Positions 47,501 to 64,000 of a DNA stretch of 64,000 nucleotides are shown piece after piece. The stretch spans positions 1,248,001-1,312,000 of the forward strand of contig CBDAOB010000004.1 of the NCBI GenBank assembly GCA_965197905.1, written 5' to 3'. Each line of letters begins with the position of its first letter. The first letter of the stretch is position 1. Under the pieces are notes generated by a model, which saw only the letters and a list, made by a program, of their open reading frames with translations, was not told the origin of the DNA and searched no databases. The translations under genes were made by a program, and so were the position numbers. This DNA comes from Candidatus Latescibacterota bacterium. Its GTDB lineage: Bacteria > Latescibacterota > UBA2968 > UBA8231.

Positions 47501-48917
47501 CTGGAGCACCCCCGTAGGTGACGAGCTGGCCGCAGACGTGCAGATCCCGTGGCCGCCCGACCCCGAGATACCACGCCCGCATGAGGGCAGGTTGCGTTTG
47601 AATTCGGACGGAGTCGACCTCTTCGTATTCCTCGACCAGGCCCCCCAGCTGGAGAATCTGGAGGGCACCCTTGTCATCGATCTCCTCGTGGACGACCTGT
47701 TGAGGAAACCCCGCTTCGCCGGCGCGATCGATCTGTCAGATCTGGAATTCGCGCTAATGGATGTGAGTCCGGCTTACCGGATACCGGCTGGCCATCTTCA
47801 ATTTTCGGACCGCCGCTGGGAGCTGAGCGGGTTTTCGGGAGGACCGACCAAGGGACCGGGCCGGCTCGCACTCGCCGGCAGTATGGGCTTGGGGAAGAAG
47901 GACGAGCTGGATCTCGAGCTGCGCCTCACCACCGCCGATCTCCCCTACAATTACGACGATGTGTTCGAGGTGCCCGCCGTCGATATGGACCTGCGGTTCG
48001 ACAAGACCGGACCCACCTCGCGGCTCTCGGGATATCTGCGACTCGATGAAATCCTGGTGGAGCCGACCCTGATCGATCTCTCGGCGCCGCCAGTGCCTCC
48101 GCCGACGGCGGTGCCGGATGAATCCCTGGTCGAACTGGAGCTGGATATCAGCGTGGACGTTCGCTCGATGCATGTGGAGAACGAGCTCTCCGACCTGGAT
48201 ATGGTGGGCGGCGCCCGGGTGTACGGAAGTTTCTACAAACCGCGGTTTCAGGGCCAGATGGAGGTGGAGCGCGGAAAGGTCTTCCTGCTCAACCGGCAGT
48301 TCGATATTCAGAAAGGGCGCATCACCCTGGATCACCTGGTGCCCACCCATTCCCTGCTCGAGCTGGCCTACGACCCGATGCTGTTGAATCCCGATCTGCA
48401 GGTAGAGGCCAGCACCTCGGTGCAACCGATAGACGCCGAAGAAGCGGAAGAAACCTACGAAGTGCGGCTGACCTTGAGCGGGCCGGCGCGGGTCGTGGCG
48501 CCCCGGTTCGAATGCGGTGGTCTCACCGATGGGCAGATCCTTACCCTCTTGGCGTTCGGCTACCGCTCGGTGAACCAGCTGACCGAAGACGACTACCAGG
48601 GCGCCAAGAGCGCGCTCTACACGGCGGCGGGACAGCTCCTGTTGAGTCGCCAGGTGAAGAAGATCGGCTTCGACGAGTTTCAGATCCTGCCGTCTGGAAC
48701 CGCGCTCGGCACGGTGGGTAAGACTTCGGTACGCCTGGGAAAGTACCTGGGGAAACCGGTACCGCTCTGGTTGCGCTACGAGGCTTCCACCGAAGAACCC
48801 TCATTGGGCGAGATTCGCCTCGAACACAAGCTGGGCTCCTTCCTGACCTTGACCGGGACCGCCCAGAGCGAGTACGAACGGTACGGTCTGGGTATCGGCA
48901 TCAAGAAAGCGTTTTGA
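44568..48917 (+). CDS. Translocation/assembly module TamB-like protein
   Basis: N-terminal TM anchor; long beta-rich repeats; C-terminal DUF490-like region ending GLGIGIKKAF. Confidence 0.8.
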   Translation: MTKRKLLTVCVAGLVLGVLLVISPAAPFLGGKLLAPLAAQQGWQLRIDTVGGSLLHQIELLGVELADSTGSTRIRIRKLKYHPWSDSIIVVEPHIELRPAPDAPAADTLFVLPTLPAVAIRRGSLTYRGEDSLSIAVDSMKAAYATRSDSTGFITLFHGRYRIDAPRKVATGSASGQLHLRPGWIEGSGLQIAFRTGEIDGSLELEGTIALFGEREADLHADLRLATAGINWETASDVGGRLRPMDLKMISRTAADLGKWGSSRFSWNLAANDGNVWVDSLKGHVREATISGGAHYDVGTRTLETELHLRGLKLSELPGSSLAGELAATATAHLQLRDENYRVESMVSARDLDLGPLGKTDAVIEGRYDHGQGIDLKLRSDLAQLTATGPFHSLEHFQLDLAGLLPLEPLLGRGSQPFTLRGVAHPDSIQVDLTSGDLRVAGQRFGPLQLHLAMKQDRQLFGRLRLEDGQANLQFHADLNRTRLESMTGRLHPMPLHRMVPGLAGTVRGTVGSRVDTLPTARGIAARFHLQDLVYENWHVGAVDLEAEFLEDQLQIRATGEHLKSRMQLDMEGGFRGRMDADGVLIRRFSRGKKPTLRGDLAMRGTLEIAGRLGQAEDFAVDLSVNQLEFSLDSFHAASLEPFAANVAAGAGEIEEMRVRTSLGEAWMGGYVHRDSLRLTARITALDLGGLIIGASSTGSAALTLNGSMEQPQLMGTLAVTDLHLANRTFGDIEAELSWGDRLRADAELHQYGSRAAHLAVDSDLGLATYARQLSDRPTKAPTAHMLRLQLGVDDLDLEAPLSQLLDQPTRGVTDFGLDLSMPFSRHSSGTLWQRVNGELAIERLGVGTQKARVELVRPVTLAARSGAWKVDDLAFQFAVSRGDSNSYADAGRARLSGEIGADGVLDLTADVEGLDLDVLEGSGAPSLPEGAATARIQVADSLAALLVEGTVDVALEDLGEVTGSVLSRRGHSEAQLIWSTPVGDELAADVQIPWPPDPEIPRPHEGRLRLNSDGVDLFVFLDQAPQLENLEGTLVIDLLVDDLLRKPRFAGAIDLSDLEFALMDVSPAYRIPAGHLQFSDRRWELSGFSGGPTKGPGRLALAGSMGLGKKDELDLELRLTTADLPYNYDDVFEVPAVDMDLRFDKTGPTSRLSGYLRLDEILVEPTLIDLSAPPVPPPTAVPDESLVELELDISVDVRSMHVENELSDLDMVGGARVYGSFYKPRFQGQMEVERGKVFLLNRQFDIQKGRITLDHLVPTHSLLELAYDPMLLNPDLQVEASTSVQPIDAEEAEETYEVRLTLSGPARVVAPRFECGGLTDGQILTLLAFGYRSVNQLTEDDYQGAKSALYTAAGQLLLSRQVKKIGFDEFQILPSGTALGTVGKTSVRLGKYLGKPVPLWLRYEASTEEPSLGEIRLEHKLGSFLTLTGTAQSEYERYGLGIGIKKAF

Positions 48918-51004
48918 TGCGCCGTCTGGTCGCGGCGCACCGCCGGCGTGCGATTCTCCTGGTTGCGGTCCTTTCCACGGCGATACTGTTGTGTCTCCCG
49001 GACCAGGGAACGACCCAACTGCAGTCGGTAACCTTGCGCGAGGCGGACGGGGAACAGGTAGGCGCGATTCGGTTCTATCACCTCAAACACAAACCGATTG
49101 TGAACGCCGAACTGCGCGCGGCGATGCGCACCCAGATTGGGGAACCGCTGCAGCGACGGTTTTTCCGCAACGATGTGGAGACCCTGGAAAACCTCTACCG
49201 CAGCAAGGGTTTTATGGACGTCTCCATCCGCGATCGGCGATTGACCATCGACGATAAGGGCAGGGTGCACATCGCCATCGACATACACAGCGGGAGAAAG
49301 TGGAAGGTGGCGGCAGTGGAATTGGTCGTCCGCGACTCGGTCTCGGTGCCGAAGCTGCCAAAGAAGAGGAAGCTGCAACCGGGCAAGACCTTTAGATATG
49401 GGCGGATGCTGCAGGATGAGCGCAAGCTGCAGAGCGCCCTAAATCGACAAGGGTATGCCCATGCTCAGGTAAAAGCCCAGTTGCAGTTGGATTCCAGGAA
49501 ACGCCAGGCCACGGTGCGCTATCACGTCGATCCCGGACGGCGTTACTATTTCGGCTCGGTAGCGGTCAAAGGGATGAAAGGCAACCAGGAGCGTCCGCTC
49601 AAAACGCTCCCCAGCCTCGTAAACCGCTCGCTCACTTTTCGCGAAGGCGACCTTTACAATCCCGCCGAATTAAGCTTGAGTCGCAGCAATCTCGCACGGA
49701 CCGACCTCTTCCGCTCCGTGATTGTGAATACCAAAACAGGTGCCGAAAAGGACAGCCTGCAACATGTGGAGATCGTGCTGGAGGAGCTGAAGTACCTGCA
49801 TCTGGGCGGCCAGTTTACGATGGAGAACAAAGATGCACGGGTCGCGGCCAATATTCAGCACCGCAACTGGCTGGGACGCGGCGGCCGCATCGGACTCGAT
49901 GGCAGCCTCGGTCAACCGAAGCAGGGGGCGACCGCGTACATCTCGGAGCGTCACGTTCTCGGCAGTAGCGCCGATCTTACCCTATCCTCCGGGATTGCGG
50001 AAGAATGGGGACGAACGCAGGTGGGCGTTTCGGAAGACGAAGAGCAGCGAACGATGCTGGAAGCAGCCGATCCGTTGCTGCGGCGTCTTTTGGCGGACGG
50101 TGAATCGGTTGCAGCCGGGCTTTATCTACGCGAGTCGTTCTACCAGTTTCGGTCGATCGAGCGAATCTGGAATGCGAGCGCCATTTTACAGAGGAGCTGG
50201 GCCCGCGCCGAGGGGTTGACCCATTTGTTGCGCCTGTCGTTGCGCTGGACGTTGTCGCGCACCCAGCCCACCGGCAACAGTATCGATTTCAAAACCGCCA
50301 GGCGCGGTGCGGGGGCCGCCGGCGACGCTTTGGGAAACCCGAGTCTGGCGGACCAGTTGGCCACGGATGGAATCCCGGTAGACCGAGCCTGGAAGAATGA
50401 GCTTACCGATGAGTCCCGCACTATCGACCTGAATCTCATCTTGGAACGCGACTCTCGCGACAATCAGATCGCTCCCAGTGAGGGAACCTACCTCAAGGTG
50501 GGCGGGTTGGCGGCGCTCCAGGTGGGCGGGTTGGCGGCGCTCCAGGTTGGCGGTCAGGCCACTCAGGTCCTGGATGGTGTCCTCGAATTCAGGTACTACC
50601 AACCGGTCGGATCTCACCTGGTCTTCGCGCAGGGGTTCACGGTGGTGCAAGCGGCCTCGCTGCGGGCGGACCGTACCCTGCCCCGAACCTATTGGAAGGA
50701 ATCTGGCGGCGAAGGAAGTGTTCGTGGCGTGCCGCGGCAGAGCATTCAGGCGGTGGGCGGAGGTCGCACCGGATTCAATCTGCGCAGCGAGCTTCGATTC
50801 GAGTGGCGCAACCTCGGCGTCGTGAGTTTCTGGGACCGTGCGGATGTGTGGCGTCACACCAGCCAGGCTCAGTGGACGGGCATGACCGACGGATACGGCC
50901 TTGGCCTGCGCTACGCCATCGGATTCCCACTGCGCTTCGACCTCGGCACCGATGATGGCTTCAAGAGCAAAAGGTATTACTTTTCTATCGGGCAGGCGTT
51001 TTGA
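48917..51004 (+). CDS. TamA/BamA (Omp85) family outer membrane protein
   Basis: POTRA-like segments (YRSKGF, GY.HA, FREGDLY); GG.GSVRG; C-terminal YYFSIGQAF. Confidence 0.88.
50496..50547 (+). repeat. Perfect 24-bp tandem duplication within the Omp85 barrel
   Basis: (AGGTGGGCGGGTTGGCGGCGCTCC)x2 + AGGT, encoding VGGLAALQ x2. Confidence 0.9.
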
Positions 51005-53038: not shown

Positions 53039-53398
53039 GGGGGCGATATGGGTTCGACGGGAATGGCGAAGCCAAGATTGCGTGCCGAGGTCCCCGAAAC
53101 CTCGTTAAACCTTGGGGAAACTTTTAGTTGCCAATAGCGATTACGCTTTGGCTGCCTAAGAATTCTTAGGTAGCCCGCCGGGGCCGATTGAGCCTGCGCG
53201 GCCGGCCCCGACGTCATCTTTAGCAGGCTAGTCTCGGTTCCTGTGTTCGGGGGGGCCGGGGCGAAACTTACTGGACTAGTTCCTTGAGGATCCTGTCAGT
53301 CGGAACCACGGGGGATGAGATTGTAGACTGACTACGCACGTAGGATATCTGGGTAGGATCATTTTCGGACGCGGGTTCAATTCCCGCCGCCTCCACCA
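53039..53398 (+). ncRNA. ssrA: tmRNA; tag peptide (A)ANSDYALAA
   Basis: 5' GGGGGCG pairs with 3' CGCCTCC-ACCA (G3-U Ala determinant); TTCGAC near 5' end; T-arm GCGGG-TTCAATT-CCCGC; tag GCC AAT AGC GAT TAC GCT TTG GCT GCC TAA at 53130-53159. Confidence 0.97.
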
Positions 53399-55427
53399 AT
53401 TGTGAAGATACGCAACTCTCTGTTTCTATGGGAGTTGCGTTTTCTTGTTCTGCGCCGACGGCTTGGCGGTACATACTATGTACATAGTTTTCGCCGATTC
53501 TTAGGTGCTCCGCCACTTTGTCGACCGCCTCGGTCAAACGCTCTTCGCGTGTCCTACCGTAGACGTTCATGGTTAACTCAGGAGTAGCGTGACGCGCCTG
53601 GGCCTCCTTGACCGTCACGTCGCCCCGCTCCAAGACCAGATTGATATAGGCCAGTCGGCAGGCGTGGAAGTCCAGCTTTCCCCCAGGTGCGTACTTGGGG
53701 ATATCCGCCGCCTCCAGATCTTTATCCAGGTCACGCGCCGTGTGCGTGGGAACATATAGAAGCGGGTTATCCGGCGTTTCCTGGTGGGCGTCTTTGCGGC
53801 CATAACGACGGTCATAAAGTTGCTTGGCTTCGCCGGTTTTTGCGAACTCACTTAGTCGATCAACGAGCAACGCCGGGATAGAGTGGAATCCGCCCTTTCG
53901 ATTTTTTGTCCAGGCTGCGTCCAGGTGTAGCCCACGGCGTTTAACATCGAGATGGTCGACGGTGAGGTTGCAAAGCTCGTTTGCTCGTAACCCCGACAAG
54001 AATGCGGTCTCGTAGAGGATGCGACGGTACGTGGGCGCAACGTCCAAAAGGCGGTTTATTTCGTCGACGGTCATCGCCCTGCGTTGCGTCAGCGGCGTCG
54101 TGTCAAAGGGAGCCATTGCGGCGAGCGGGTCGTGCCCCAGGTATCCGCGCTTCACACACCAATCGCAGAAGGCCCCCAGAGCCTCCGCATAGTTGGCGAT
54201 CGTCTTGCCGGCCCTCCCCAGCCTCTGCAACTCGCGCAGAGCCTTTTCTACTCTGGGAAGAATACCGGGCATTTCTCCCAATGTCAGGATACCCAAGTTG
54301 TCCTGCCACCATCCGAGATGTCTACGTCGGTTTGCTGCGTGGGTCGGGCTCCAGGGTAAACCGTTTCGCCCACCTTGTGAGTTCCCCCAGGCCAAATATT
54401 CCGATTTGACGTCCTCGACACTCAGGTGGTCGGTTTGGGCGGTATTTTTCTGCTCTTTGCTGATGGTGATATTGCGGCTCCCCGACTTGCATTTTGAAAT
54501 GAGAATGCCCGCATCCTGTAGGTTCGTCCTTACCTCATTAAGACGACGCCCCAAGGCGCTTGGCGACTTCGGCCACATCTTATCTCGGACATCGATTTTC
54601 TGGATTGCCGCCTCCGCCTCCAGCTCATCCAGCAGCGCCGCCGCTTGTCCGTCCCAGTGGCCTTCCTTGTCCATCAAGGCCATGATCGCGGCCGCTACCG
54701 GATGTCCATACACAACCTCATCATTCTGTTCGTCGATGTTTGCCATATACGCGGCCATAAAGCATTCCGGCGAAGAACCAAGGCCGGCAGCGATAGCACA
54801 CCCCCAATTAGCGAAGTCCGCCAAGCGTGGTTTTGAATCAAGCCGCGTGTTGGTCTTGATCGAGATCGCTTTCGACAACGCGTCGAGCATGCCACCCAGT
54901 ATATGCGGGCGCGCCTGGGAAAATTCTGTTTCGAGTCGCTCCTCGTCCCGGCGTTCATTGTTGGCTATGCGATCCAAGCCGATCAATATGGACCTATCCA
55001 GTAGATCTGCTTTGGTCGCCGCGGCGTTAATACCATTCAAAATGATGCAGCGCCGAAAAGAGTAGATGATATCATCGTCGTCGGTGTAAAGTTGGCGTTT
55101 GCTGATACCGTCCCCCGTGCATCCTCGGCATAGCGCATCGGATTGTTGGGACTGAAGCATGTCTACGTTGTCGAAGGGCACCATGTAATGATGGGAGAGA
55201 ATTTGGGCCAACTCGGCCGGGTTTCGGGGAAAACTCAAATTTTCCAGCGACGATGGATCAATCAGTCGGCGCAGCAGCCGCGACATGAATGTTTTCCCAG
55301 ATCCCTGAGGCCCATGGAGCACTAGGATTGGATGGGGGAAGTTGGGGAGCAAACAGAACACCATCCAGGTTTTTAGGCGGTGTAGATCGTGTGGGACATC
55401 CAATGGCGGAATCGCAAACTTCCGCAC
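53268..55427 (-). CDS. Chimeric ORF: primase-associated P-loop ATPase fused to tyrosine integrase, running antisense into tmRNA
   Basis: VLHGPQGSGKT, FDN, DLLDR in the N-half; SGLRANE, TKN, HACR, ARH, NVY (R-K-H-R-H-Y) in the C-half; junction near 54430; LVEAAGIEPAS is the antisense T-arm. Confidence 0.85.
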   Translation of the reverse strand: MRKFAIPPLDVPHDLHRLKTWMVFCLLPNFPHPILVLHGPQGSGKTFMSRLLRRLIDPSSLENLSFPRNPAELAQILSHHYMVPFDNVDMLQSQQSDALCRGCTGDGISKRQLYTDDDDIIYSFRRCIILNGINAAATKADLLDRSILIGLDRIANNERRDEERLETEFSQARPHILGGMLDALSKAISIKTNTRLDSKPRLADFANWGCAIAAGLGSSPECFMAAYMANIDEQNDEVVYGHPVAAAIMALMDKEGHWDGQAAALLDELEAEAAIQKIDVRDKMWPKSPSALGRRLNEVRTNLQDAGILISKCKSGSRNITISKEQKNTAQTDHLSVEDVKSEYLAWGNSQGGRNGLPWSPTHAANRRRHLGWWQDNLGILTLGEMPGILPRVEKALRELQRLGRAGKTIANYAEALGAFCDWCVKRGYLGHDPLAAMAPFDTTPLTQRRAMTVDEINRLLDVAPTYRRILYETAFLSGLRANELCNLTVDHLDVKRRGLHLDAAWTKNRKGGFHSIPALLVDRLSEFAKTGEAKQLYDRRYGRKDAHQETPDNPLLYVPTHTARDLDKDLEAADIPKYAPGGKLDFHACRLAYINLVLERGDVTVKEAQARHATPELTMNVYGRTREERLTEAVDKVAEHLRIGENYVHSMYRQAVGAEQENATPIETESCVSSQLVEAAGIEPASENDPTQISYVRSQSTISSPVVPTDRILKELVQ

Positions 55428-56475
55428 CGCAGCACTTCATGGTGATCCCCAACGTAAACCTGCGCGTGCGGAACGCGGTGTTGATCATGGAACAGCTTCG
55501 CATGGGAAGCAACCATCTTGGCAAGGCGGGAAGCCTGAGACTCTTTTGCATCACCAGCACCGTCATCCCCGTCTCCGTCAGCAACGCTATCCTCGGTTGG
55601 CTCCCAAGGCTTGGCCTCAGCGAGAATCCGGTCGATGTCGTCACGATTCCACCCTAATCCGTGTACGCCGTCCCAGACATCCCCCGTTTCGGGCAGTGCT
55701 TCGGGAGGCTCGACAATACGGATTGACTTGGCGACGCCTTCCAGGAACCGCCCCACCTGCTCCATATGGCCACGGCCGGCGGTATCGTTGTCGGGCCACA
55801 GAATCGCGTCTTCATTGGCCAAGTAGGCAGTGAGTTCAACGGTCCACCCGCCGGCCCCAAAAGGGTTGGTGGTGGCCCGGAATCCCATAGCCCATAGTGT
55901 GTCAGCCTTAGCCTCCCCCTCCGTGATTACAACCGGACCCTGACCTTTCGTTGTTACGAGATCGTGAAGCCGGTAAGGCAACAACTCAACCCCCTTGCAT
56001 TCCAGATCCAAGCGCCGTTCCCGTCGGGGCGACGGACTGAAAAGTCCTTCCTTCTTCCGTTCTTGCCCGGCTCCTTGCGAACTGTTTGAAATTGCAGATT
56101 GTTGGACTCGTCGGTGTAGCTGAACTCCGCAACGAGCGTTTGCGCTCGATCATTGCTTGGCACGGCGATGCCAAAGTCCTTGATGATTCCTTCCAATACC
56201 ATGGGGAACTGTGCCCGGCAGTCGAGCCCGGTCTGCTGTGCGTAATAGTCGATCGCGTGCCCCCCAGCTTTGCACACCAGACAATAGTGACTACCTGCTT
56301 TTCTTCCCCTAAGAACAAGGTTTCTACTCGGTCTCTGATCATTGTGCGAAAAGCAAATAACATCCGTCGTGTCGCCATTACCCAGATCGGGATGGAAGTG
56401 GGAATAGAAAGGGGTGTAATCTTGACCGAAGTGGTCGAGAATCGCCTTCTTGAGGTCGGGCGTACTGTCGGTCAT
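55373..56475 (-). pseudogene. Primase (CHC2 Zn finger + TOPRIM), frameshifted
   Basis: CFSH...CLVC; VVITEGEAKAD; WPDND..G; 1-nt loss at ~55990-55997 (WIWNA/KGVELLPYRL); ATGA overlap with xis. Confidence 0.82.
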
Positions 56476-56720
56476 GGCAGTTCGCTTCCATCGGCTCGCT
56501 GATTCCGCACCCCTTGGTCCGCCTGTGCTGAAGTGGATCCTTCGAGCCATTCGGTGATCAGAATCCAGTCGTAAATGACCTTACGCCCCACTTTTAGAAA
56601 TGGAATCTCGCGCCGGCTTGTCTTTTTGCGAATAGTGTTCAAAGCCAGCGGCACCCATTCAGCTAACTCCTCGGCACTCAAAAATCGCTTCGAAGGAACA
56701 CCGCATATCGTGCCAAGCAT
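56472..56720 (-). CDS. Excisionase-like HTH protein
   Basis: AAGGAG RBS; FLSAEELAEW...NTIRKKTSRREIPFLKVGRKVIYD...ITEWL. Confidence 0.85.
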   Translation of the reverse strand: MLGTICGVPSKRFLSAEELAEWVPLALNTIRKKTSRREIPFLKVGRKVIYDWILITEWLEGSTSAQADQGVRNQRADGSELP

Positions 56721-56747
56721 TTCAAAATCTCCTTGGTTGCTGAGCAC

Positions 56748-56783
56748 AAAAAAGGCCCAGGCATTACTGTGTATGCCTGGGCT
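56748..56783 (-). terminator. Intrinsic terminator after the AAA+ regulator
   Basis: Minus strand AGCCCAGGCAT-acacagta-ATGCCTGGGCC-TTTTTT. Confidence 0.8.
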
Positions 56784-56832
56784 TGTAGCAAGTGGTATTC
56801 CGAACGACGTAACTATTAGTCGTGAAATATCC

Positions 56833-58299
56833 TTAGGGATCGTGTTCGGGGAGCCGCCCGGCTTCCGAACAGTTTTCCGAATCCCAGCCGGGGATCTCGC
56901 CGTTGGCCTCCAGCACCGTCCAGGCATTGCCGAACTTGGTGCTGGTATCGCTGAGCGTGGACTTGCCGATGCCCAACTCAGCGGCAACCTGGCTTTTCTT
57001 AACGGGTTCGCCGTTCGGGCAGAGCCGTAGTATCGCCCCGAGGACACGGTCCACATGATGGTCATGCACCTTAAGAACCTCAGCCAGATCCCCCTGGCTT
57101 TCTCGGCAAAAGGAGCCAATCTCGTTCCTAATCGTTCTAACGCTCAGACGGTCCTCTTGTCCCCACTGGCGCAATTTTCTCGCAATCTGGAATCGATATT
57201 TGGAAGCCTCCTTGATTCCAGATTGCTGATCCACAAAGTGACGGACAAGGTTGGGTATGTCGGAAACTCGAAAGAGCACGTCAGGAACCTGCACAACATG
57301 TTGGTTGATCCGTTCCAACAAATCCGTTTGGAAACCTTCCAGCGTCGCGAGAGACTGGTTGGAGGTTACAACAATCATTGCACCCGCTCCTGAAATAGGA
57401 TCAACATCGCCAACCTTGGTAAAAGTGCGTTCTTCAAGAACCTGGAGCAGTTTGGGTCGTTGTTTTTCGGCGAGGTAGTTAATGTCGTCGAGTACCAATG
57501 TGCCATTGTTGCTGCACGCCTCGAACCATCCATCCTGATCGTCAGTCGCACCAGTGAAAGCGCCCTTTCTGTGGCCAAAAAGCGCTGATTCGACCAAGTG
57601 TTCGGAAATTGCTGAAACATTAAGTCGGTAAAACCTGCCCTCACGCCCACCCAAATCGTGAATAGCCTTCGCGATGGCGCCCTTCCCTGAACCACGTTCC
57701 CCTTCGATCAGGACGATTGGAGATTCGCCTCCCAATGACAGCTTTGCAATCTGGGCTACGTCGCGGTACAACCCAACCATCGAGAGCGCGTTGCCGACGA
57801 CGCCGAACTGCTGCATTCTCTGGCAAAGACCGTATGCCACTTCATTCGTAAGCCCCAACTCACGCATATAAAAATCCTTGTAGGGGAACGGCTTTTCTGC
57901 AAAATTGCTCCAGCCATCGATCGCTTTCGCCTGGTCGTAGTAGCCTGCCCGCAGGAAACAATCGCGCTGCTCTTCTGGGCCCAAATCACGAACGAGGCGT
58001 TCCAGTTGCTGGAGATCACAAAGCCGGATGATGACGTCTACATCAGGATCGTCTAGTGTAAGTGGTTTGAATTGCGAGAAAGGTTTGATCAACCAATCAA
58101 ACTCGAAGGGCTTGAATAATACCTCCTCGGGCGTCACATCACTATCTTCCATCTTTGAAAACGCCCGTGACAAGAGAGTCGTGAGTTCGACGACGCCCGG
58201 CCCGCCTGGAGCATCCTCCATCTCCCAAATCGGAAGGCCCGTTGGGCGCATCTTCTGCGCGAAGTTTTTGAGGGCGTGCTTCGCGGCTGTCGATTCCAT
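56833..58299 (-). CDS. Sigma54-interaction (bEBP-like) AAA+ protein with C-terminal HTH
   Basis: GERGSGK, ESALFGHRKGAFTGA, LVLDDI, LLQVL; HTH KSQVAAELGIGKSTL; AAGGA RBS before ATG 58299. Confidence 0.85.
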   Translation of the reverse strand: MESTAAKHALKNFAQKMRPTGLPIWEMEDAPGGPGVVELTTLLSRAFSKMEDSDVTPEEVLFKPFEFDWLIKPFSQFKPLTLDDPDVDVIIRLCDLQQLERLVRDLGPEEQRDCFLRAGYYDQAKAIDGWSNFAEKPFPYKDFYMRELGLTNEVAYGLCQRMQQFGVVGNALSMVGLYRDVAQIAKLSLGGESPIVLIEGERGSGKGAIAKAIHDLGGREGRFYRLNVSAISEHLVESALFGHRKGAFTGATDDQDGWFEACSNNGTLVLDDINYLAEKQRPKLLQVLEERTFTKVGDVDPISGAGAMIVVTSNQSLATLEGFQTDLLERINQHVVQVPDVLFRVSDIPNLVRHFVDQQSGIKEASKYRFQIARKLRQWGQEDRLSVRTIRNEIGSFCRESQGDLAEVLKVHDHHVDRVLGAILRLCPNGEPVKKSQVAAELGIGKSTLSDTSTKFGNAWTVLEANGEIPGWDSENCSEAGRLPEHDP

Positions 58300-58536
58300 C
58301 TCTCGTATCCTTATGCGGCAAAGGCGGGAAAGTACGGATCCATGCTGGGCACTGGCCAGGACCAGCGATGCTGCACAATTGAACACTTAGGGACTTTTTG
58401 TGCAGGTATTACTAAGGTATATTCTGGGTATGCAGTTGTCCAGAGATGTCCTTGGATGGCTCAGATCGCGGTGTGCAGCAGAAACTTATTCCTAATCTTT
58501 TGTGCTACGCGTTATAAGTCACCGAAAAATGACAAC

Positions 58537-58695
58537 TTAAGACATGCCGAAGAGATGGAAATTAGCCGTTTGCCCCATGCTTGCCCCACAAAAACGGTGT
58601 TGTCTCGTTTTTTCTTCATACCAGATCTTCCCATTCCAGCAGTACCCCACACCGTCCAATTCGACCTGCCATGTAGGGGTTTCCGGCTTCTTCAT
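58537..58695 (-). CDS. Small hypothetical protein MKKPETPTWQVELDG... (52 aa)
   Basis: GGAG RBS; its ATG overlaps the integrase stop in the reconstructed attP. Confidence 0.5.
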   Translation of the reverse strand: MKKPETPTWQVELDGVGYCWNGKIWYEEKTRQHRFCGASMGQTANFHLFGMS

Positions 58696-58907
58696 ATCAG
58701 TCTCCGCATGGCCGAAACGTGGGCGAGTAATGTAATGTGTTCCTCCACCAAGCCGCCGTATGATCAAGAAACCAAGTGATCCACCAAGGCCAAGGAGTTC
58801 ACGGAGCTCATGCACCGAACGATAGCGGCGGGGTCGACGGCTTCGGGCTCGCGCCCTTCTCGCCCTCTGTCGGGGGGTGCCGAAAACTTTTTCGACGGAG
58901 AGGATCC

Positions 58908-59891
58908 TTGCGATACATCATCTATGGAGCGGGCGGCATCGGAGGCACGATCGGCGGGCACTTACACCGCGCGGGTCGCCAGGTGGCGCTGGTGGGCAAT
59001 GCCGCCCATGTGGAGTCGATCCGGGCCCGGGGGTTTACCTTCCTGACCGGCGACGGGAGCTATTCTCTGGAGATCCCCGCGTTCGAGACGGCGGGGGGAC
59101 TGGCCCCTTTCCACGACGACGACATCGTCCTGCTTTGCGCCAAATCCCAACACACGGTCCGCTGCATGGGGCAGTTGAAAAACGCCGGCGCACCCCGGTC
59201 GCTCCCTGTCGTATGCTGCCAGAATTCGATCTGGAACGAGGCGGCGGTCACCCGCGTCTTCGACCGGGTCTACGGCGCCGTGATCTCCGTGCGGGCCATC
59301 TTCCTGAAGCCGGGAGAGGTGATCAATCCGGTGTCGGAACGCGCCGGCTATATCGAGGTGGGGTGTTATCCCTCGGGACAGGACGAGGTCTGCGAAGCGG
59401 TGAGCCGCGATCTGTCGGAGGCGAGTTTCTCGGCACACGTCAACGCCGAGGTCATGAAGGCCAAAGGGGCCAAATGCCTGGGCAATCTGGTCAACGCCCT
59501 GCAGGCTATCACCGATGGCAAGGGAGACACGCGAGCCTACTTGGAACAGGTGCAGCGGGAGGCCGAAGCCGTGTGGGCGGCCGCCGGCATCGAATGGGAA
59601 GATCGAGGCTCGTACGGCGAGCGGCGCGCGAGGTCGGGCGAGGTTGCGAAGAAGCCTCCAGGATGTGAAGATGTCAAGGCAGGCGGCTCCTCCTGGCAAA
59701 GCTTGGTGCGAAGCACCGGCTCCATCGAAGCGGAGGAACTGAATGGGGATGTGGTGAAGCTCGGCGCCTATCTTCGAATTCCGGCGCCTTACAATGAACT
59801 CCTCTGGCGGCTGGCAACCGAAATGGCTGCCAATGGCGAACCGCCGGGCAAATATTCGGCCGACGCACTGATGGCGATGATTCCGCAATAG
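58908..59891 (+). CDS. Ketopantoate reductase (PanE/ApbA) family oxidoreductase
   Basis: RYIIYGAGGIG, CAKSQ, CQN, K..GNL.N, SSWQS, E.EELNG; TTG start after GGAGAGGA. Confidence 0.88.
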   Translation: MRYIIYGAGGIGGTIGGHLHRAGRQVALVGNAAHVESIRARGFTFLTGDGSYSLEIPAFETAGGLAPFHDDDIVLLCAKSQHTVRCMGQLKNAGAPRSLPVVCCQNSIWNEAAVTRVFDRVYGAVISVRAIFLKPGEVINPVSERAGYIEVGCYPSGQDEVCEAVSRDLSEASFSAHVNAEVMKAKGAKCLGNLVNALQAITDGKGDTRAYLEQVQREAEAVWAAAGIEWEDRGSYGERRARSGEVAKKPPGCEDVKAGGSSWQSLVRSTGSIEAEELNGDVVKLGAYLRIPAPYNELLWRLATEMAANGEPPGKYSADALMAMIPQ

Positions 59892-60146
59892 AATACCAGC
59901 ATGTCCGCCAAGTTCAAGGTTCAGCGAGTCCTGGCGCCCATGGTTGATGGTCTTGCGCCCTGCGGTTCCAGAGGAGGAATAGCCCTGAAGGCCGGTGGGC
60001 GCAGTCAGATCGGCGTAATCGTCGCCACATCGAATATCAGCGCAGTTTTCGCCACGGCGCTGCTCGCGCCTTATATCACCCGCTTCGCGGTTCGCAAACC
60101 GGCATGACATTGTGCGCCATAGAAGCAAGGGGAGAAGAGTCACGGC

Positions 60147-60483
60147 ATGAAGAAACGAAACTCTTCGTCGGATGCGCTTGTGTCGGTCCACGGTGGACAC
60201 AGCAGAGAATTCGGCGATGCAGATGAGTCCGCCCTTGAAGAAATCGTATGCGCCTACATTCACAAGGGCTTCAAATGGGTGGGTATTACCGAACATATCC
60301 CGCCCGTTTCAGCGGACTTCCTGTGGCCTTGGGACATTGAGAAGGGTCACACGGCACCAGTCGATGCTACGTCGGTTCGAAGAATATTTTTCCGTCGCTC
60401 GCAAGCTCCAGGTGGAGTATCGGGATTCCATTCACATGTTAGTTGAGGCCAGACAATTTTTGGAAAATGCGCCACAATTATGA
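60147..60483 (+). pseudogene. PHP-domain histidinol-phosphatase-like fragment
   Basis: VSVHGGHS, GITEH; frame switch near 60355 into ...FEEYFSVARKLQVEY; truncated. Confidence 0.7.
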
Positions 60484-60540
60484 CGTTGGACCGATGAAAG
60501 CAGGAAGGGACAGAGCCTCCGAGCGTCTTCAGTAAACATT

Positions 60541-61302
60541 ATGCGGGAAAGTCAGAAACAATTTAAGAGGCCCCCAAAAAGACATCAGCCGAGGGGGCTT
60601 TCGATTCTCTATGAAGATCGAGATATCCTGGTCGTGGATAAGGTGAGTGGTCTTTTGACAGTGAGTAATGAGAAAGTCAGATGCAATACAGCTTATTATC
60701 TCTTGAATGATTACGTGCGCAAAGGGAATCAGAAATCAAGGCACCGGGTATTTATCGTGCATCGTCTGGATAGAGATACTTCCGGTGTTATCGTGTTTTC
60801 CAAGAATGAGAATGCCAAGCGTTATCTTCAGGAAGAGTGGCAGGGATTTCAAAAGAAGTACTATGCCCTCGTACATGGAACGTTACCGGAGAAGGAGGGT
60901 GTAATTACTTCCTATCTTGCAGAAACCCGTGCTCATAAGATGTATTCTGTTGGTGATCCGAAAGAGGGTAAGCTTGCTAAGACCGGGTATAGAGTTCTGA
61001 GAGAATCACCAAAGTACAGTCTTCTGGAAATAGATCTGTTGACCGGTAGGAAGAACCAGATCCGGGTCCATCTTTCGGACAAGGGCTGTCCTGTGGCTGG
61101 CGACAAAAAGTATGGAGTCAAGGAAAAGGGCATCAAAAGGCTCACACTTCATGCGGCCTCCATTACAATAGTTCATCCGTATTCAAAAGAGAAGATGACC
61201 TTCACAACAAAGGTTCCCGCCTATTTCGAATCACTTATAGAGGGGTCTAAAGGGGCACACAAAAGCTCAGGAAGAAGTGGACCCCAGAATTCGGACAGCT
61301 AG
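60541..61302 (+). CDS. RluA family pseudouridine synthase
   Basis: ILYED, DKVSGLL, VHRLDRDTSG, TGRKNQIRVH, GDKKYG, LHA. Confidence 0.93.
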   Translation: MRESQKQFKRPPKRHQPRGLSILYEDRDILVVDKVSGLLTVSNEKVRCNTAYYLLNDYVRKGNQKSRHRVFIVHRLDRDTSGVIVFSKNENAKRYLQEEWQGFQKKYYALVHGTLPEKEGVITSYLAETRAHKMYSVGDPKEGKLAKTGYRVLRESPKYSLLEIDLLTGRKNQIRVHLSDKGCPVAGDKKYGVKEKGIKRLTLHAASITIVHPYSKEKMTFTTKVPAYFESLIEGSKGAHKSSGRSGPQNSDS

Positions 61303-61739
61303 GTTAGGTGGGCCCAACAGCTGATGCGGAGGATATGGATTTATGACGGGTATCCCTTGGGCATCCGTTCCGTGCCAGACGACACGGCTGATTCCATTCG
61401 GACATCTGACCGGCTTGCCAGTCGCACGATGCGCGGCCAGCGGATAGAGATGTTGATATCCCCCAGATCCCATTCAGTCGGCATGTTGATCTCTTCGGTG
61501 ATCTCACCGGAATCGGTCATCGAAACGACCGGATCGGGCCCGCGCGGGGCGCTCCTGACTCGTGAGACCCATGATCATTTCTAAATCCAAGTACCTGTCT
61601 GGTCTCAATCCGTATTCGGTGAAGCCGATGAGAGCGCGGACAAAGAAGGTAAGCCGGTCGAACTCCTCACTTCGGCGAAAAGAGTCGTCGAACTCCCGTT
61701 GATCTGAACCGCGAAGCGGATGCCAAAGGACAAGGGCCT

Positions 61740-62016
61740 TCAGGCTTCAACGGCAGATTGGTTCTTGGGATCTATATCGCCGTAGCGTGCCGTTACGACA
61801 TCCTTGATGTTCTCGTAATGTGCTATGGCCGCCAACTCCAGTGTCTCGGGAGAAAGCCGTTCGCGGACCTCTTCTGAAAAGGGCTCGAAAGAGCTGCCCA
61901 CGTTGTACTGCAAGTTGTACCGCATGATCAGAAATCGGCGATCCCGATCCTTGGGAATCCAGTTGAGCACGCCGTGGATGAGGCGTTCCGAGATGATCAC
62001 CACATCACCTGCCCTA
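61740..62016 (-). pseudogene. C-terminal fragment of a PhyH-family dioxygenase
   Basis: RAGDVVIISERLIHGVLNW...RRFLIMRY; N-terminus absent. Confidence 0.65.
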
Positions 62017-62394
62017 GGAGGTTGGAATCGAAATCGGCAGACGCGGCTGCCCGGAGAAATTGGGGCTTTTAAACAGCAGCTGCCCCTGTGGGTCAAAGAT
62101 GCGGACGAACGTTTCGGTGCCGGGTGATTGTGATTGGAGGTCCTGGTAGGCTGTGACAGGCCAGACGGGAATTCCTTCATCAAAGCTGATTGAGGATAGG
62201 ATGCGGGCCTGGTGCTGCGCCAGGCGACGATCGACACCGTGGTGAACGGCGATGAACATGGCGACAAAGAGAACCAGGAAGATGAATCCCATCAGGACGA
62301 TGAGACTGGCCCCGTACCACAGCGCCAGGCGTGTGGATATAGAGTAGCGTGAGGAAGCGAGTGCCCCTACGAGTTTATAGCGCACGCCACTCAA
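62014..62394 (-). pseudogene. N-terminal fragment of a sensor histidine kinase
   Basis: SISTRLALWY + TM + VDRRL; directly downstream of the response regulator fragment; no kinase core. Confidence 0.65.
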
Positions 62395-62395
62395 C

Positions 62396-62710
62396 TCACT
62401 CAGACTCAACCACGAATCGGAATCCGGCGCCACGAACGGTTTCTATGTGGAGGCTCTCAGGCACATCTTCTGCACGGAAGGCCTCTCTGAGATGCTGGCG
62501 CAGCCCAGAAACCGTGACACCAATTACGTTGTCCGTAACCCACGGATTTCCCCAAACCCGCTCTGCAATCACGGTTCGCGAAATAACTGAACCGGGATTT
62601 TGGACCAAAAGAGTCAGCAGGGCGAATTCCTTGCCGCGCAACATCAGGTCGGTACTGCCCAGGGTGGCTTCCCGACGGCTTCGAAAGATGATATCGATCT
62701 CACTCGGAGA
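62396..62710 (-). pseudogene. C-terminal (winged helix) fragment of an OmpR-family response regulator
   Basis: KEFALL.LL..NPG.VISR..IAERVWG...NVI.V.VSGLR...IETVRGAGFRF; receiver domain absent. Confidence 0.78.
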
Positions 62711-63039
62711 ATGGAGGAGGCAGGGCAGCTGATCGGCATCGACGTCATAGATCACGTGATCGTCGGAGCTTCTTGACCAGTACCGGACGGTAGGCGAGGA
62801 GCGCCATGCCGCTACCTCAAAGAAAGCACAAGCTGCCGCTGGTCTCCTGGTCGTCGGTCTCCAACAGCCTTGCCCGCTTCGGTGTTCACGCACCGGGCGG
62901 GCGCTTTTCCGTACTAACTACGTCTACGAAATCAGTCTGTCAAAAGCAAGAGAAAATATTCTTAAGTATGTGTATTTATTAAAGTTTTTGGATCTTGAGA
63001 CGCAATAGCGTACTGTAAAATATACCGGAGGATTCTATA

Positions 63040-63288
63040 ATGGCATCGCTCGCCTACCTAAGGGTTTCCACCGAGGAACAGGCGCGGAGCGGTCTGGGAT
63101 TAGACGCACAGCTGGAGGCCATCGAGAGCAGTCTGGGCAAGCCAACGCAGGTATTCGTGGACGATGGATATAGTGGTAGCGATCCGAAGCGTCCCGCATT
63201 ACTGGAGGCCTTAGGCAACTCGCAGAAAATGATATACCAGCTCAACGGCCCTGATGTTGAATACAGACCTTGCAAACGCACAAAGTAA
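63040..63288 (+). pseudogene. Serine recombinase (resolvase) N-terminal fragment
   Basis: YLRVSTEEQ..SGLGLDAQ, FVDDGYSG...RPAL; GGAGGA RBS; homology lost after ~60 aa. Confidence 0.8.
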
Positions 63289-63528
63289 ACCGGGAAGCGA
63301 GTCCTTAACATGATCGCGAATCACCGGTAGTATATTTCTTGCGAGTTCCCTAAGACTCTGCCAAACCTCGAATTTATTTGCCTGCCATAACGCCCTTCTT
63401 TTCTCGCCGAATACATTATTCATTGGGTAAAATATAACACCGATCTCATCCTCCATGAAACGGGTGATGTTTGATGCTTCGGCGACGGCGTACTCAGCGG
63501 CGGAACGGTGGAATTCTCATACGGCCAA

Positions 63529-64000
63529 TTACCACGTGTGTACGATGTGGCCCTTTACCGGGAACCAGATCATATCCACCCACCTCGAAAACACTACTGC
63601 GAGCACATAGCCGATGGCCATCCCGTAGAAAAAGGGCTTCCCCCCCAGGTAGGCCCGCACTCCCCCGTAACGCAAAAGCACCAGCTTGACGGCCCACACC
63701 AGAGACAGACTCAACCAGTAGACCCACACCCCGGTCGTGAACTGAAAGGCCAGCCCCATAGGGTGCAGCGGAAACCAGAGAAAGCGCGCGCGCAAAAACG
63801 CGAGCCCGGCCGCCTCGAAAAACCCGAAGAGCCATACGCCCCACTTCCCCCCATCCGCAACCGTGCGATTGTACATAGCCAGGACCATCTGATCAAAGGT
63901 GGACGTATCACCTGCCGTGAAGACCATGAACCCTCCTTCATAGCCCCGTTCAACGGTCACTACCGCGATCGCGAAAAAACCCACCGGAAAGGCTACCACC
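63529..64000 (-). CDS. DUF6784/DUF6785-type membrane protein, C-terminal part (runs off window)
   Basis: RARFLWFPLHPMG, WAVKLVLLRYGG..AY...KPFFYG. Confidence 0.7.
   Translation of the reverse strand, partial: VVAFPVGFFAIAVVTVERGYEGGFMVFTAGDTSTFDQMVLAMYNRTVADGGKWGVWLFGFFEAAGLAFLRARFLWFPLHPMGLAFQFTTGVWVYWLSLSLVWAVKLVLLRYGGVRAYLGGKPFFYGMAIGYVLAVVFSRWVDMIWFPVKGHIVHTW

Follow-up and report, generated by a model that had tools for sequence, protein, structure and literature searches.

Control of an integrase by an attachment (att) site lying within its own gene has so far been described for one myxophage group and for archaeal viruses, and has been a matter of speculation for Dehalococcoides islands. 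In phage Mx8 attP is located within the gene for IntP, and integration makes a new 3' end and changes the activity of the enzyme without killing it (PMC6070905); the Islander report likewise has the integrases of Mx8 and SSV extending across attP (PMC4383910). The Dehalococcoides integrase gene, encoding DsiB, always overlaps attL at ssrA, the islands form tandem arrays, and its authors speculate that the enzyme attains full function only when on the circle or when placed behind an adjacent island (PMC3146451). A review terms self-disrupting recombinases exclusive to archaea (PMC8371274). Here we compare these systems with a tyrosine integrase at the transfer-messenger RNA (tmRNA) gene of a Candidatus Latescibacterota bacterium, found in a stretch of 64,000 nucleotides (the window, G000:C4:1248001-1312000; window positions count from 1, its first letter, and the element under study extends past its end). 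Our overall reading, to which we assign a probability of about 0.85, is that the integrase gene of this family spans its own attP, that the element in the window is a decayed one of 19.2 kb, and that the tail which the enzyme lacks in the chromosome is regained on the circle.

As in the IntP of Mx8 (and of Mx9), attP of the family is found in the 3' part of the gene behind the catalytic tyrosine and gives alternative C-termini, and the Mx8 record has an antisense tRNA T-arm at codon 416 of 533 followed by a tail of about 115 residues, which is the geometry of the family. The Mx8 tail however gives no positive score with either of our hairpin profiles, the integrases are only remotely related (24% identity at an hhalign probability of 70%), and Mx8 is one full phage whereas the family is a large set of small, satellite-like elements that sit at many tRNAs and at tmRNA and share a conserved tail domain. 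DsiB is, unlike the family, a serine recombinase, and no conserved detached domain is evident for it in the available sections of its description. The 'suicidal' integrases of archaea (SSV1, pTN3, pT26-2) also carry att inside the gene, which is split by integration, but the SSV1-type cut parts the N-terminal from the catalytic part, whereas the family keeps the whole catalytic core and loses only the post-catalytic tail. With phage satellites of the type of phage-inducible chromosomal islands (PICI), the intact relatives share an integrase, an excisionase-like helix-turn-helix (HTH) protein, an Arc-like repressor and a primase-helicase; they are mostly 5-30 kb long and PICI-like and sometimes have a terminase small subunit (terS), which was recognised on the tail side in just one probed element (L159). 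Genes for the integrase, an xis-like protein and the primase-helicase were found, the PHROGs scan covering 28 selected proteins. In the integration-dependent immunity of mycobacteriophages attP lies inside the repressor gene and a C-terminal degradation tag is removed; here, in contrast, att lies in the integrase, and the tails of the integrated form differ without restriction and use three frames. A search of a phage collection gave no close integrase, the best identity being 23-25%. The term 'Planctomycet' is absent from the main text, as available, of a classification of tyrosine recombinases (PMC8138268), and no description of the family's tail was found in the literature searched, whose coverage left out most subscription journals and supplements.

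The comparison depends on the following parts of the locus.

53039..53398, + strand: tmRNA gene (ssrA), Rfam 214.5 bits, tag ANSDYALAA
53268..54430, - strand: tyrosine integrase part of a 719-residue open reading frame (ORF), which reads through attL and has its stop within antisense tmRNA
53373..53401, + strand: 29-bp attL core, T-arm to 3 nt beyond CCA
53405..53446, + strand: terminator-like GC-rich RNA hairpin with T tract, 3' of tmRNA, within the integrase coding sequence and on the strand opposite to it
53469..53486: left arm-type repeat GTACATA-n4-GTACATA, period 11, inside the left end of the element
G000:C4:1320328-1320612, - strand, outside the window: detached circle-form tail (linker and helical hairpin)
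G000:C4:1320430-1320448, outside the window: right arm-type repeat, partner of that at 53469, 180 bp inside the 29-bp copy
G000:C4:1320610-1320638, + strand, outside the window (window-equivalent 72610-38): attR, exact 29-bp copy of the tmRNA end

The tmRNA gene is the integration target and is restored by the element. A sequence-only reading of the window had noticed that a decamer at the tmRNA 3' end recurs at 58742 and had taken this second copy for the right end, with host-like genes resuming at 58752. The decamer, CCTCCACCAA, is indeed present at 53390 and 58742 with no further copies in the window, and the integrase frame does cross the left copy and stop inside antisense tmRNA, both proposed tails translating as claimed. 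The right end, however, has to be moved, since an exact 29-bp copy of the tmRNA end with paired arm repeats lies 19.2 kb away instead, the distance between the copies being 19,237 bp. With one mismatch allowed, the arm motif GTACATA-n4-GTACATA matches just four times in 6.7 Mb, including once at the end of another element, at tRNA-Pro. The best arm 22-mer common to the integrase side agrees with the 29-bp side in 18 of 22 positions and with the 10-bp side in 15, as against 13-16 of 22 in 60 random windows, and the spacing on the 29-bp side is that found in relatives; an arm-repeat score of at least 17 was obtained in 12 of the 14 scorable paired elements described below (G170C81 and L122 were left out, the script having chosen another repeat). 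Furthermore, a contig of run X5 switches from foreign DNA to the element exactly at base 1 of the 29-bp core. From the 29-bp repeat, the pairing of the arm repeats and this join we conclude that the element is 19,237 bp long and that the DNA from 58752 onward is cargo. Host-like genes were not found to resume there: compared with five related genomes, two of them of the same genus, positions 55300-64000 gave scattered short matches, the longest of 347 bp, and no syntenic block. An empty ssrA site was not found, two same-genus genomes having elements there or ending there, and over the 18 kb that follow the tandem array into which the element falls synteny does not return.

This array is apparent from a second integrase end of the same family, 63% identical, which begins at the 29-bp copy, and the element is a decayed, satellite-like integrative element in tmRNA, the first of a tandem array. 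At the tandem junction (L036:14325-15212, - strand; G000:C4:1320325-1321212) the truncated integrase of the second element is fused in frame to the tail of the first, which by its sequence would amount to tail borrowing between neighbouring elements. A 15-bp copy of the tmRNA end at G000:C4:1328571-1328585 was considered as attR of the window element and rejected, as the circle formed with it adds just three residues before a stop, and a cognate arm repeat was looked for without success. The region of that copy (G000:C4:1328566-1328585; L037:2566-2585) has a symmetric core, GTGGA-CGCCGCC-TCCAC, which suggests an outer array member with a different integrase class of the 3'-end type, and the homologs P0007, P0034 and L076 share the ending 'VEAAST' with the junction at the 15-bp copy. 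Short-read contigs from two samples, one of which is possibly the source of the assembly, cover 53380-61638 without gaps and with 0-2 differing letters, so that the odd features of this region are real DNA and not assembly errors; frameshifts as errors of long reads are ruled out by the same contigs. The RNA hairpin at 53405-53446 folds with -20.1 kcal/mol and comparable hairpins are present in the four related loci selected for folding, whereas a consensus scan did not call it. The element would in this way bring tmRNA a putative terminator inside the int coding region, and the geometry would permit int transcription to enter tmRNA antisense.

Joining the two 29-bp copies into a circle gives the integrase 94 further residues with a conserved helical hairpin (DLxxVVxAWxxLP) at their end. 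The genome has a second such tail, 75% identical and with the same phase to the T-loop; in the hairpin part the two differ in 12 synonymous and 10 non-synonymous codons, and they are free of indels over 94 codons. This second tail, followed by the same gene, is at the far end of a 24-kb island at tRNA-Pro (G000:C4:488483-512763), at the tRNA end of which no integrase of the family was found. We searched 55 genomes with a profile of the tail, and 34 of them with one of the integrase, the relatives among the remainder being covered by a separate search, and in a paired test considered 19 candidate sets on the same contig and strand, all of which have a hairpin match. In all of the 16 elements that combine a hairpin with an att repeat of 18-34 bp the circle is in frame and free of stops, the other three of the 19 sets having no repeat above 11 bp; at one in three each, the chance of such an outcome is about 2e-8. 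The 16 integrases are only 28-56% identical, have different tRNAs and tmRNA as targets, carry att 81-212 nt behind the approximate catalytic tyrosine, and cross it in all three frames and in both tRNA orientations, sense-orientation sites included. Among 53 distinct hairpin matches 41 have a T-loop upstream, and from T-loop to hairpin the frame is open in 40 of these, the two other frames being open in 6 and 2 of the 41, while a ribosome-binding site (RBS) and start are found near the hairpin in just 4 of 41. Integrase and tail are moreover joined in natural one-piece ORFs (L036, L071, L073, L089, G006:C483, P0079, P0128, P0172 and P0182).

The integrated ends are of a different nature. Of the 120 integrase homologs listed, out of 722 found, most terminate within antisense tRNA or tmRNA, each of the three frames being used; of 73 distinct C-ends from the fetched loci about 58 pass the T-arm motif (23, 19 and 16 by frame), a count that is approximate owing to some mis-hits of the motif expression, while 5 stop before it and 10 have no motif. 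As the C-ends lie in antisense sequence and in all frames, the integrated tail is evidently unconstrained. The relatives are mostly in records from Planctomycetota, Latescibacterota, Hydrogenedentota and Gemmatimonadetes. Taken together, the reading frames show the tyrosine-integrase gene of a widespread family to span its own attP, the chromosomal form losing the hairpin and the circle form regaining it, and the 16 in-frame elements with their conserved hairpin support the earlier proposal that the integration state rewrites the integrase C-terminus. It had also been suggested to test whether integrases of homologous islands cross att with a coupled small ORF; they do cross it, and the att of the family runs into the T-arm. 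Tail-bearing and island-like sites are found elsewhere as well: L034:11381-11816 of genome G002 has a tRNA-Pro-type att and tail about 1.4 kb inside its tmRNA island, and on contigs C4 and C5 of G000 at least six further islands, 5-24 kb long, can be recognised from the 3' fragments that lie downstream of tRNA-Val, -Pro, -Arg, -SeC, -Lys and -Tyr.

In the AlphaFold2 model of the natural full-length P0128, an N-terminal domain of three strands and a helix (arm-binding type) precedes the core-binding (CB) and catalytic domains, after which residues 387-483 are disordered and residues 488-522 form a helix pair predicted with pLDDT 91-95, the core matching lambda Int by Foldseek with E 1.7e-10. 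The hairpin is an amphipathic helix pair in which D, L, W, L and I are invariant or nearly so. Its relatives are hard to trace: with an E limit of 0.001 the tail profile collected 9,140 clusters, of which some are false (the top match, P0134, was rejected as a tetratricopeptide repeat false positive), the tail has no family in Pfam or PHROGs and no match among plasmids, and the ESM atlas offers, as a lead only, hypothetical Planctomycetota clusters at 0.89. Foldseek with the hairpin gave no match, and VIA-align Z-scores, at most 3.1, carry no information given the small size of the model. Two weak sequence matches were obtained in the PDB, the better of which, non-significant at E 0.33, is to residues 67-90 of C.Csp231I, a protein whose residues 67-98 (helices 6-7) interleave and provide 75% of the dimer interface (PMC3115060). 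In that protein the hairpin stands directly on the HTH domain, whereas the hairpin of the family is on a long tether. A predicted complex of two hairpin copies scored 0.25 against a mark of 0.42, the controls not having been folded.

We propose the following mechanism, for which the reading frame is shown and the fold is predicted. The gene on the circle runs from the catalytic domain through the left arm repeats, the att core and the right arm repeats to the 35-residue helical hairpin, arm repeats and core together being translated as a disordered linker of about 100 residues. Integration cuts the gene at att, leaving in the chromosome the catalytic core with arbitrary antisense-tRNA residues and parking the hairpin at attR, where no start is obvious in the sequence. 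The hairpin might self-associate and help to assemble the integrative complex, and the tail-less integrated form would then be biased against re-integration and serve excision together with excisionase, as in Mx8. Genes behind the tail would join the int transcript only on the circle. That the hairpin is a self-association module favouring integration, with the integrated form and excisionase acting in excision, is by analogy the most likely role for it, held by us at just under even odds.

A number of observations weigh against the reading advanced here. L088 has a 23-bp repeat whose circle ends after a few residues without a hairpin; the junctions of L065 and L122 are out of frame, probably because these are tandem neighbours; and 12 of the 53 hairpin matches have no T-loop upstream, so that some of the 9,140 clusters may represent small proteins that stand alone. 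The paired test tells nothing about prevalence, a hairpin match being its entry condition, and the link from hairpin to dimerisation is the single non-significant hidden Markov model match to C.Csp231I. In addition, no circle junction of the window element is listed in the contigs of four runs (five joints are not shown, and contigs drop rare forms), and a real junction at 58748, inside the decamer, is left unexplained by the 29-bp model.

Among the alternatives, the most probable is a fusion that is real but serves another end. The hairpin might stabilise or destabilise the enzyme, bind excisionase or a host factor, or couple translation to following, terminase-like genes whose expression would then depend on excision. 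In favour of coupling, the next co-oriented gene starts 9 nt after the tail stop in G000 and such genes are close behind in several relatives, and the lack of significance of the only dimerisation match is likewise on this side. An amphipathic helix pair with near-invariant residues nonetheless suggests a protein interface rather than a degron or spacer, coupling alone would need no conserved fold, and nothing in the sequences points to a degron; we regard these other functions as a credible possibility with somewhat less than even odds. Considerably less probable, and in our view improbable, is that the hairpin is the product of a small gene of its own, a regulator or partner with its start inside the arm repeat, and that the open frame shared with int is incidental. 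The arm repeat often contains an ATG or GTG just before the hairpin, gene callers give many stand-alone versions of 45-80 residues, and the matches lacking an upstream T-loop would fit, but the phase agreement of all 16 pairs over three frames is left unexplained, as is the excess of open linkers over both control frames, and the rarity of RBS and start speaks against it as well. A mixed case, in which circle fusion is accompanied by a weak internal start in the integrated state, is possible.

The last alternative is the short att of the sequence-only reading, a 5.35-kb element between the two decamers whose circle would give a short integrase tail coupled through ATGA to a 52-residue ORF. It concerns these features, all on a short piece of the window.

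58480..58593, + strand: end of a foreign element that is of the tRNA-Arg(CCT) anticodon-loop type, with the core TTCCTAATCT (58489-98) and TTGCCCC repeats (58570-87)
58601..58714, - strand: 5' gene fragment, RBS and 33 codons of a 78-residue gene, 87% identity to the G002 gene
58742..58751, + strand: 10-bp tmRNA-like decamer, a mosaic junction within the element and not the attR of the family

The geometry of the decamer circle, that is the short tail ending in RRLI, the ATGA overlap, the GGAG and the 52-codon ORF, is present as sequence. The decamer match is exact, the chance of this word in 5.4 kb being 1.1% and that of any att-core decamer containing CCACCA 4.3% in 5.4 kb and 14% in 19.2 kb, which makes the repeat modestly unusual (1-4% in 5.4 kb) and not decisive; the GC content climbs from about 0.50 to 0.64 at the decamer, and random joins give ATGA with GGAG 0.6% of the time, a figure that ignores the real gene start present. 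This ORF, with one homolog among 167 other genomes searched, is however a chimera of 33 codons from the fragment of the 78-residue gene and 19 last codons from the tRNA-Arg-type element end. The G002 gene sits between unrelated genes with no att at its start and no integrase near, and as it has the same GGAG and ATGA the 'coupling' is inherited from the fragment and proves no short att. Positions 58480-58593 are 80% identical to an element end within the split anticodon loop of tRNA-Arg(CCT) in G002, and the TTGCCCC repeats, tried as arm site of the decamer, belong instead to the tRNA-Arg-type core at 58489. In G002 (L177:8700-9090) this tRNA gene, which follows a cold-shock gene, is interrupted in its anticodon loop by an element remnant of about 140 bp, and a divergent copy of tRNA-Arg comes next; in G000:C5 the tRNA gene is intact. 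No homolog was found for 58715-58790, and TCCACCAAG occurs twice, at the decamer and just right of it (58744 and 58780, 36 bp apart; window 58744-58788).

In run X6 (seawater) the DNA right of the decamer runs leftward into other sequence from 58748, and as this break falls inside the decamer, the decamer is a true mosaic junction, which could be counted for the short att. The other context nevertheless has just CCAA in common with the decamer side and does not map to tmRNA; it was found in none of 75 other genomes of the family, and in metagenome and genome contigs one 20-mer gave no match and a second 44 chance matches. Run X5 has a clean 2.4-kb deletion of window 57312-59746, from which it follows that the island varies between strains; both sides are present there in the same order, the decamer having been removed by the deletion. 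Perhaps the junction arose by aberrant recombination at an att-like word. Since, furthermore, the five paired elements with a tmRNA-type core all have a repeat including the T-loop, no GTACATA arm or hairpin is found left of the decamer and no integrase end right of it, and the empty-site join of 53399 to 58752 predicted earlier is not listed in the contigs of four runs, the short-att model is largely refuted and we consider it very improbable.

The remaining genes of the 19.2-kb element are as follows.

54455..55427, - strand: helicase/ATPase part of the 719-residue ORF, fused to the integrase by deletion
55373..56475, - strand: split primase, with a zinc-finger ORF (55954-56475) and a toprim ORF (55373-56011)
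56472..56726, - strand: excisionase-like HTH gene (PF12728 below cut-off; phrog_66 E 9e-4)
56833..58386, - strand: sigma54-activator-like AAA regulator, cargo or regulator (PF00158 E 4e-36)
58752..64000: cargo that consists in part of gene fragments (ketopantoate reductase-like, pseudouridine synthase, pieces of two-component and resolvase genes)
G000:C4:1320057-1320314, - strand, outside the window: small co-oriented gene behind the tail
G000:C4:1319846-1320205, - strand, outside the window: second small co-oriented gene behind the tail

The second of the small genes may, to judge by a motif, be terminase-small-subunit-like, no match having been found in Pfam or PHROGs. In intact relatives the order is att, tail, sometimes terS, cargo, xis, primase-helicase, HTH, ribbon-helix-helix and int. 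In these the HTH and ribbon-helix-helix genes and the integrase N-terminus stand between the helicase and the integrase core, whereas in the window helicase and integrase are fused, as is confirmed in short-read contigs, and about 70 N-terminal residues, the arm-binding domain that relatives retain, are missing. The catalytic residues R162, K189, R272, H294 and Y304 are invariant and H269 nearly so in the window integrase and its relatives (65 rows; PF00589 match), but two residues before the ARH motif that are kept in 100 of 100 parsed homologs (20 were not parsed) are deleted. Given the split primase, the helicase fusion, the lost N-domain and the two missing residues we judge the window copy to be probably grounded, and by its sequence it is probably immobile by itself. 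The AAA protein, directly upstream of xis and primase, has an unusual N-terminus and an HTH-like C-terminal end, and neither end has a homolog in the fetched loci. The cargo runs about 8.6 kb past the window to the tail and attR; within it a gene at 60147-60483, presumably PHP-like although without a Pfam match, is interrupted by a frameshift, and other gene fragments extend to about 63300, as is typical of eroded cargo. Upstream of tmRNA, an Omp85/BamA-like ORF (48914-51004) has a tandem duplication of eight residues (VGGLAALQ twice, about 50490-50550).

As regards the window, the analysis corrects the earlier reading: its element is decayed and has a length of 19.2 kb. For the family, what is new is a conserved, family-wide att-in-integrase design with a defined detachable domain. 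We tentatively suggest, at rather less than even odds, that this design is a built-in directionality switch, in which a dimerisation hairpin tethered across attP would be present on the circle form only and drive integration, that thousands of 'hypothetical proteins' beside tRNA fragments in Planctomycetota, Latescibacterota and related phyla would be amputated tails, and that the outer element of an array may borrow the tail of its neighbour when frames match. A very common class of mis-annotated small 'hypothetical proteins' would thereby be explained, integrases mined from integrated copies for genome engineering would miss their circle-form C-terminus, and how tail swaps set directionality becomes testable on many natural elements.

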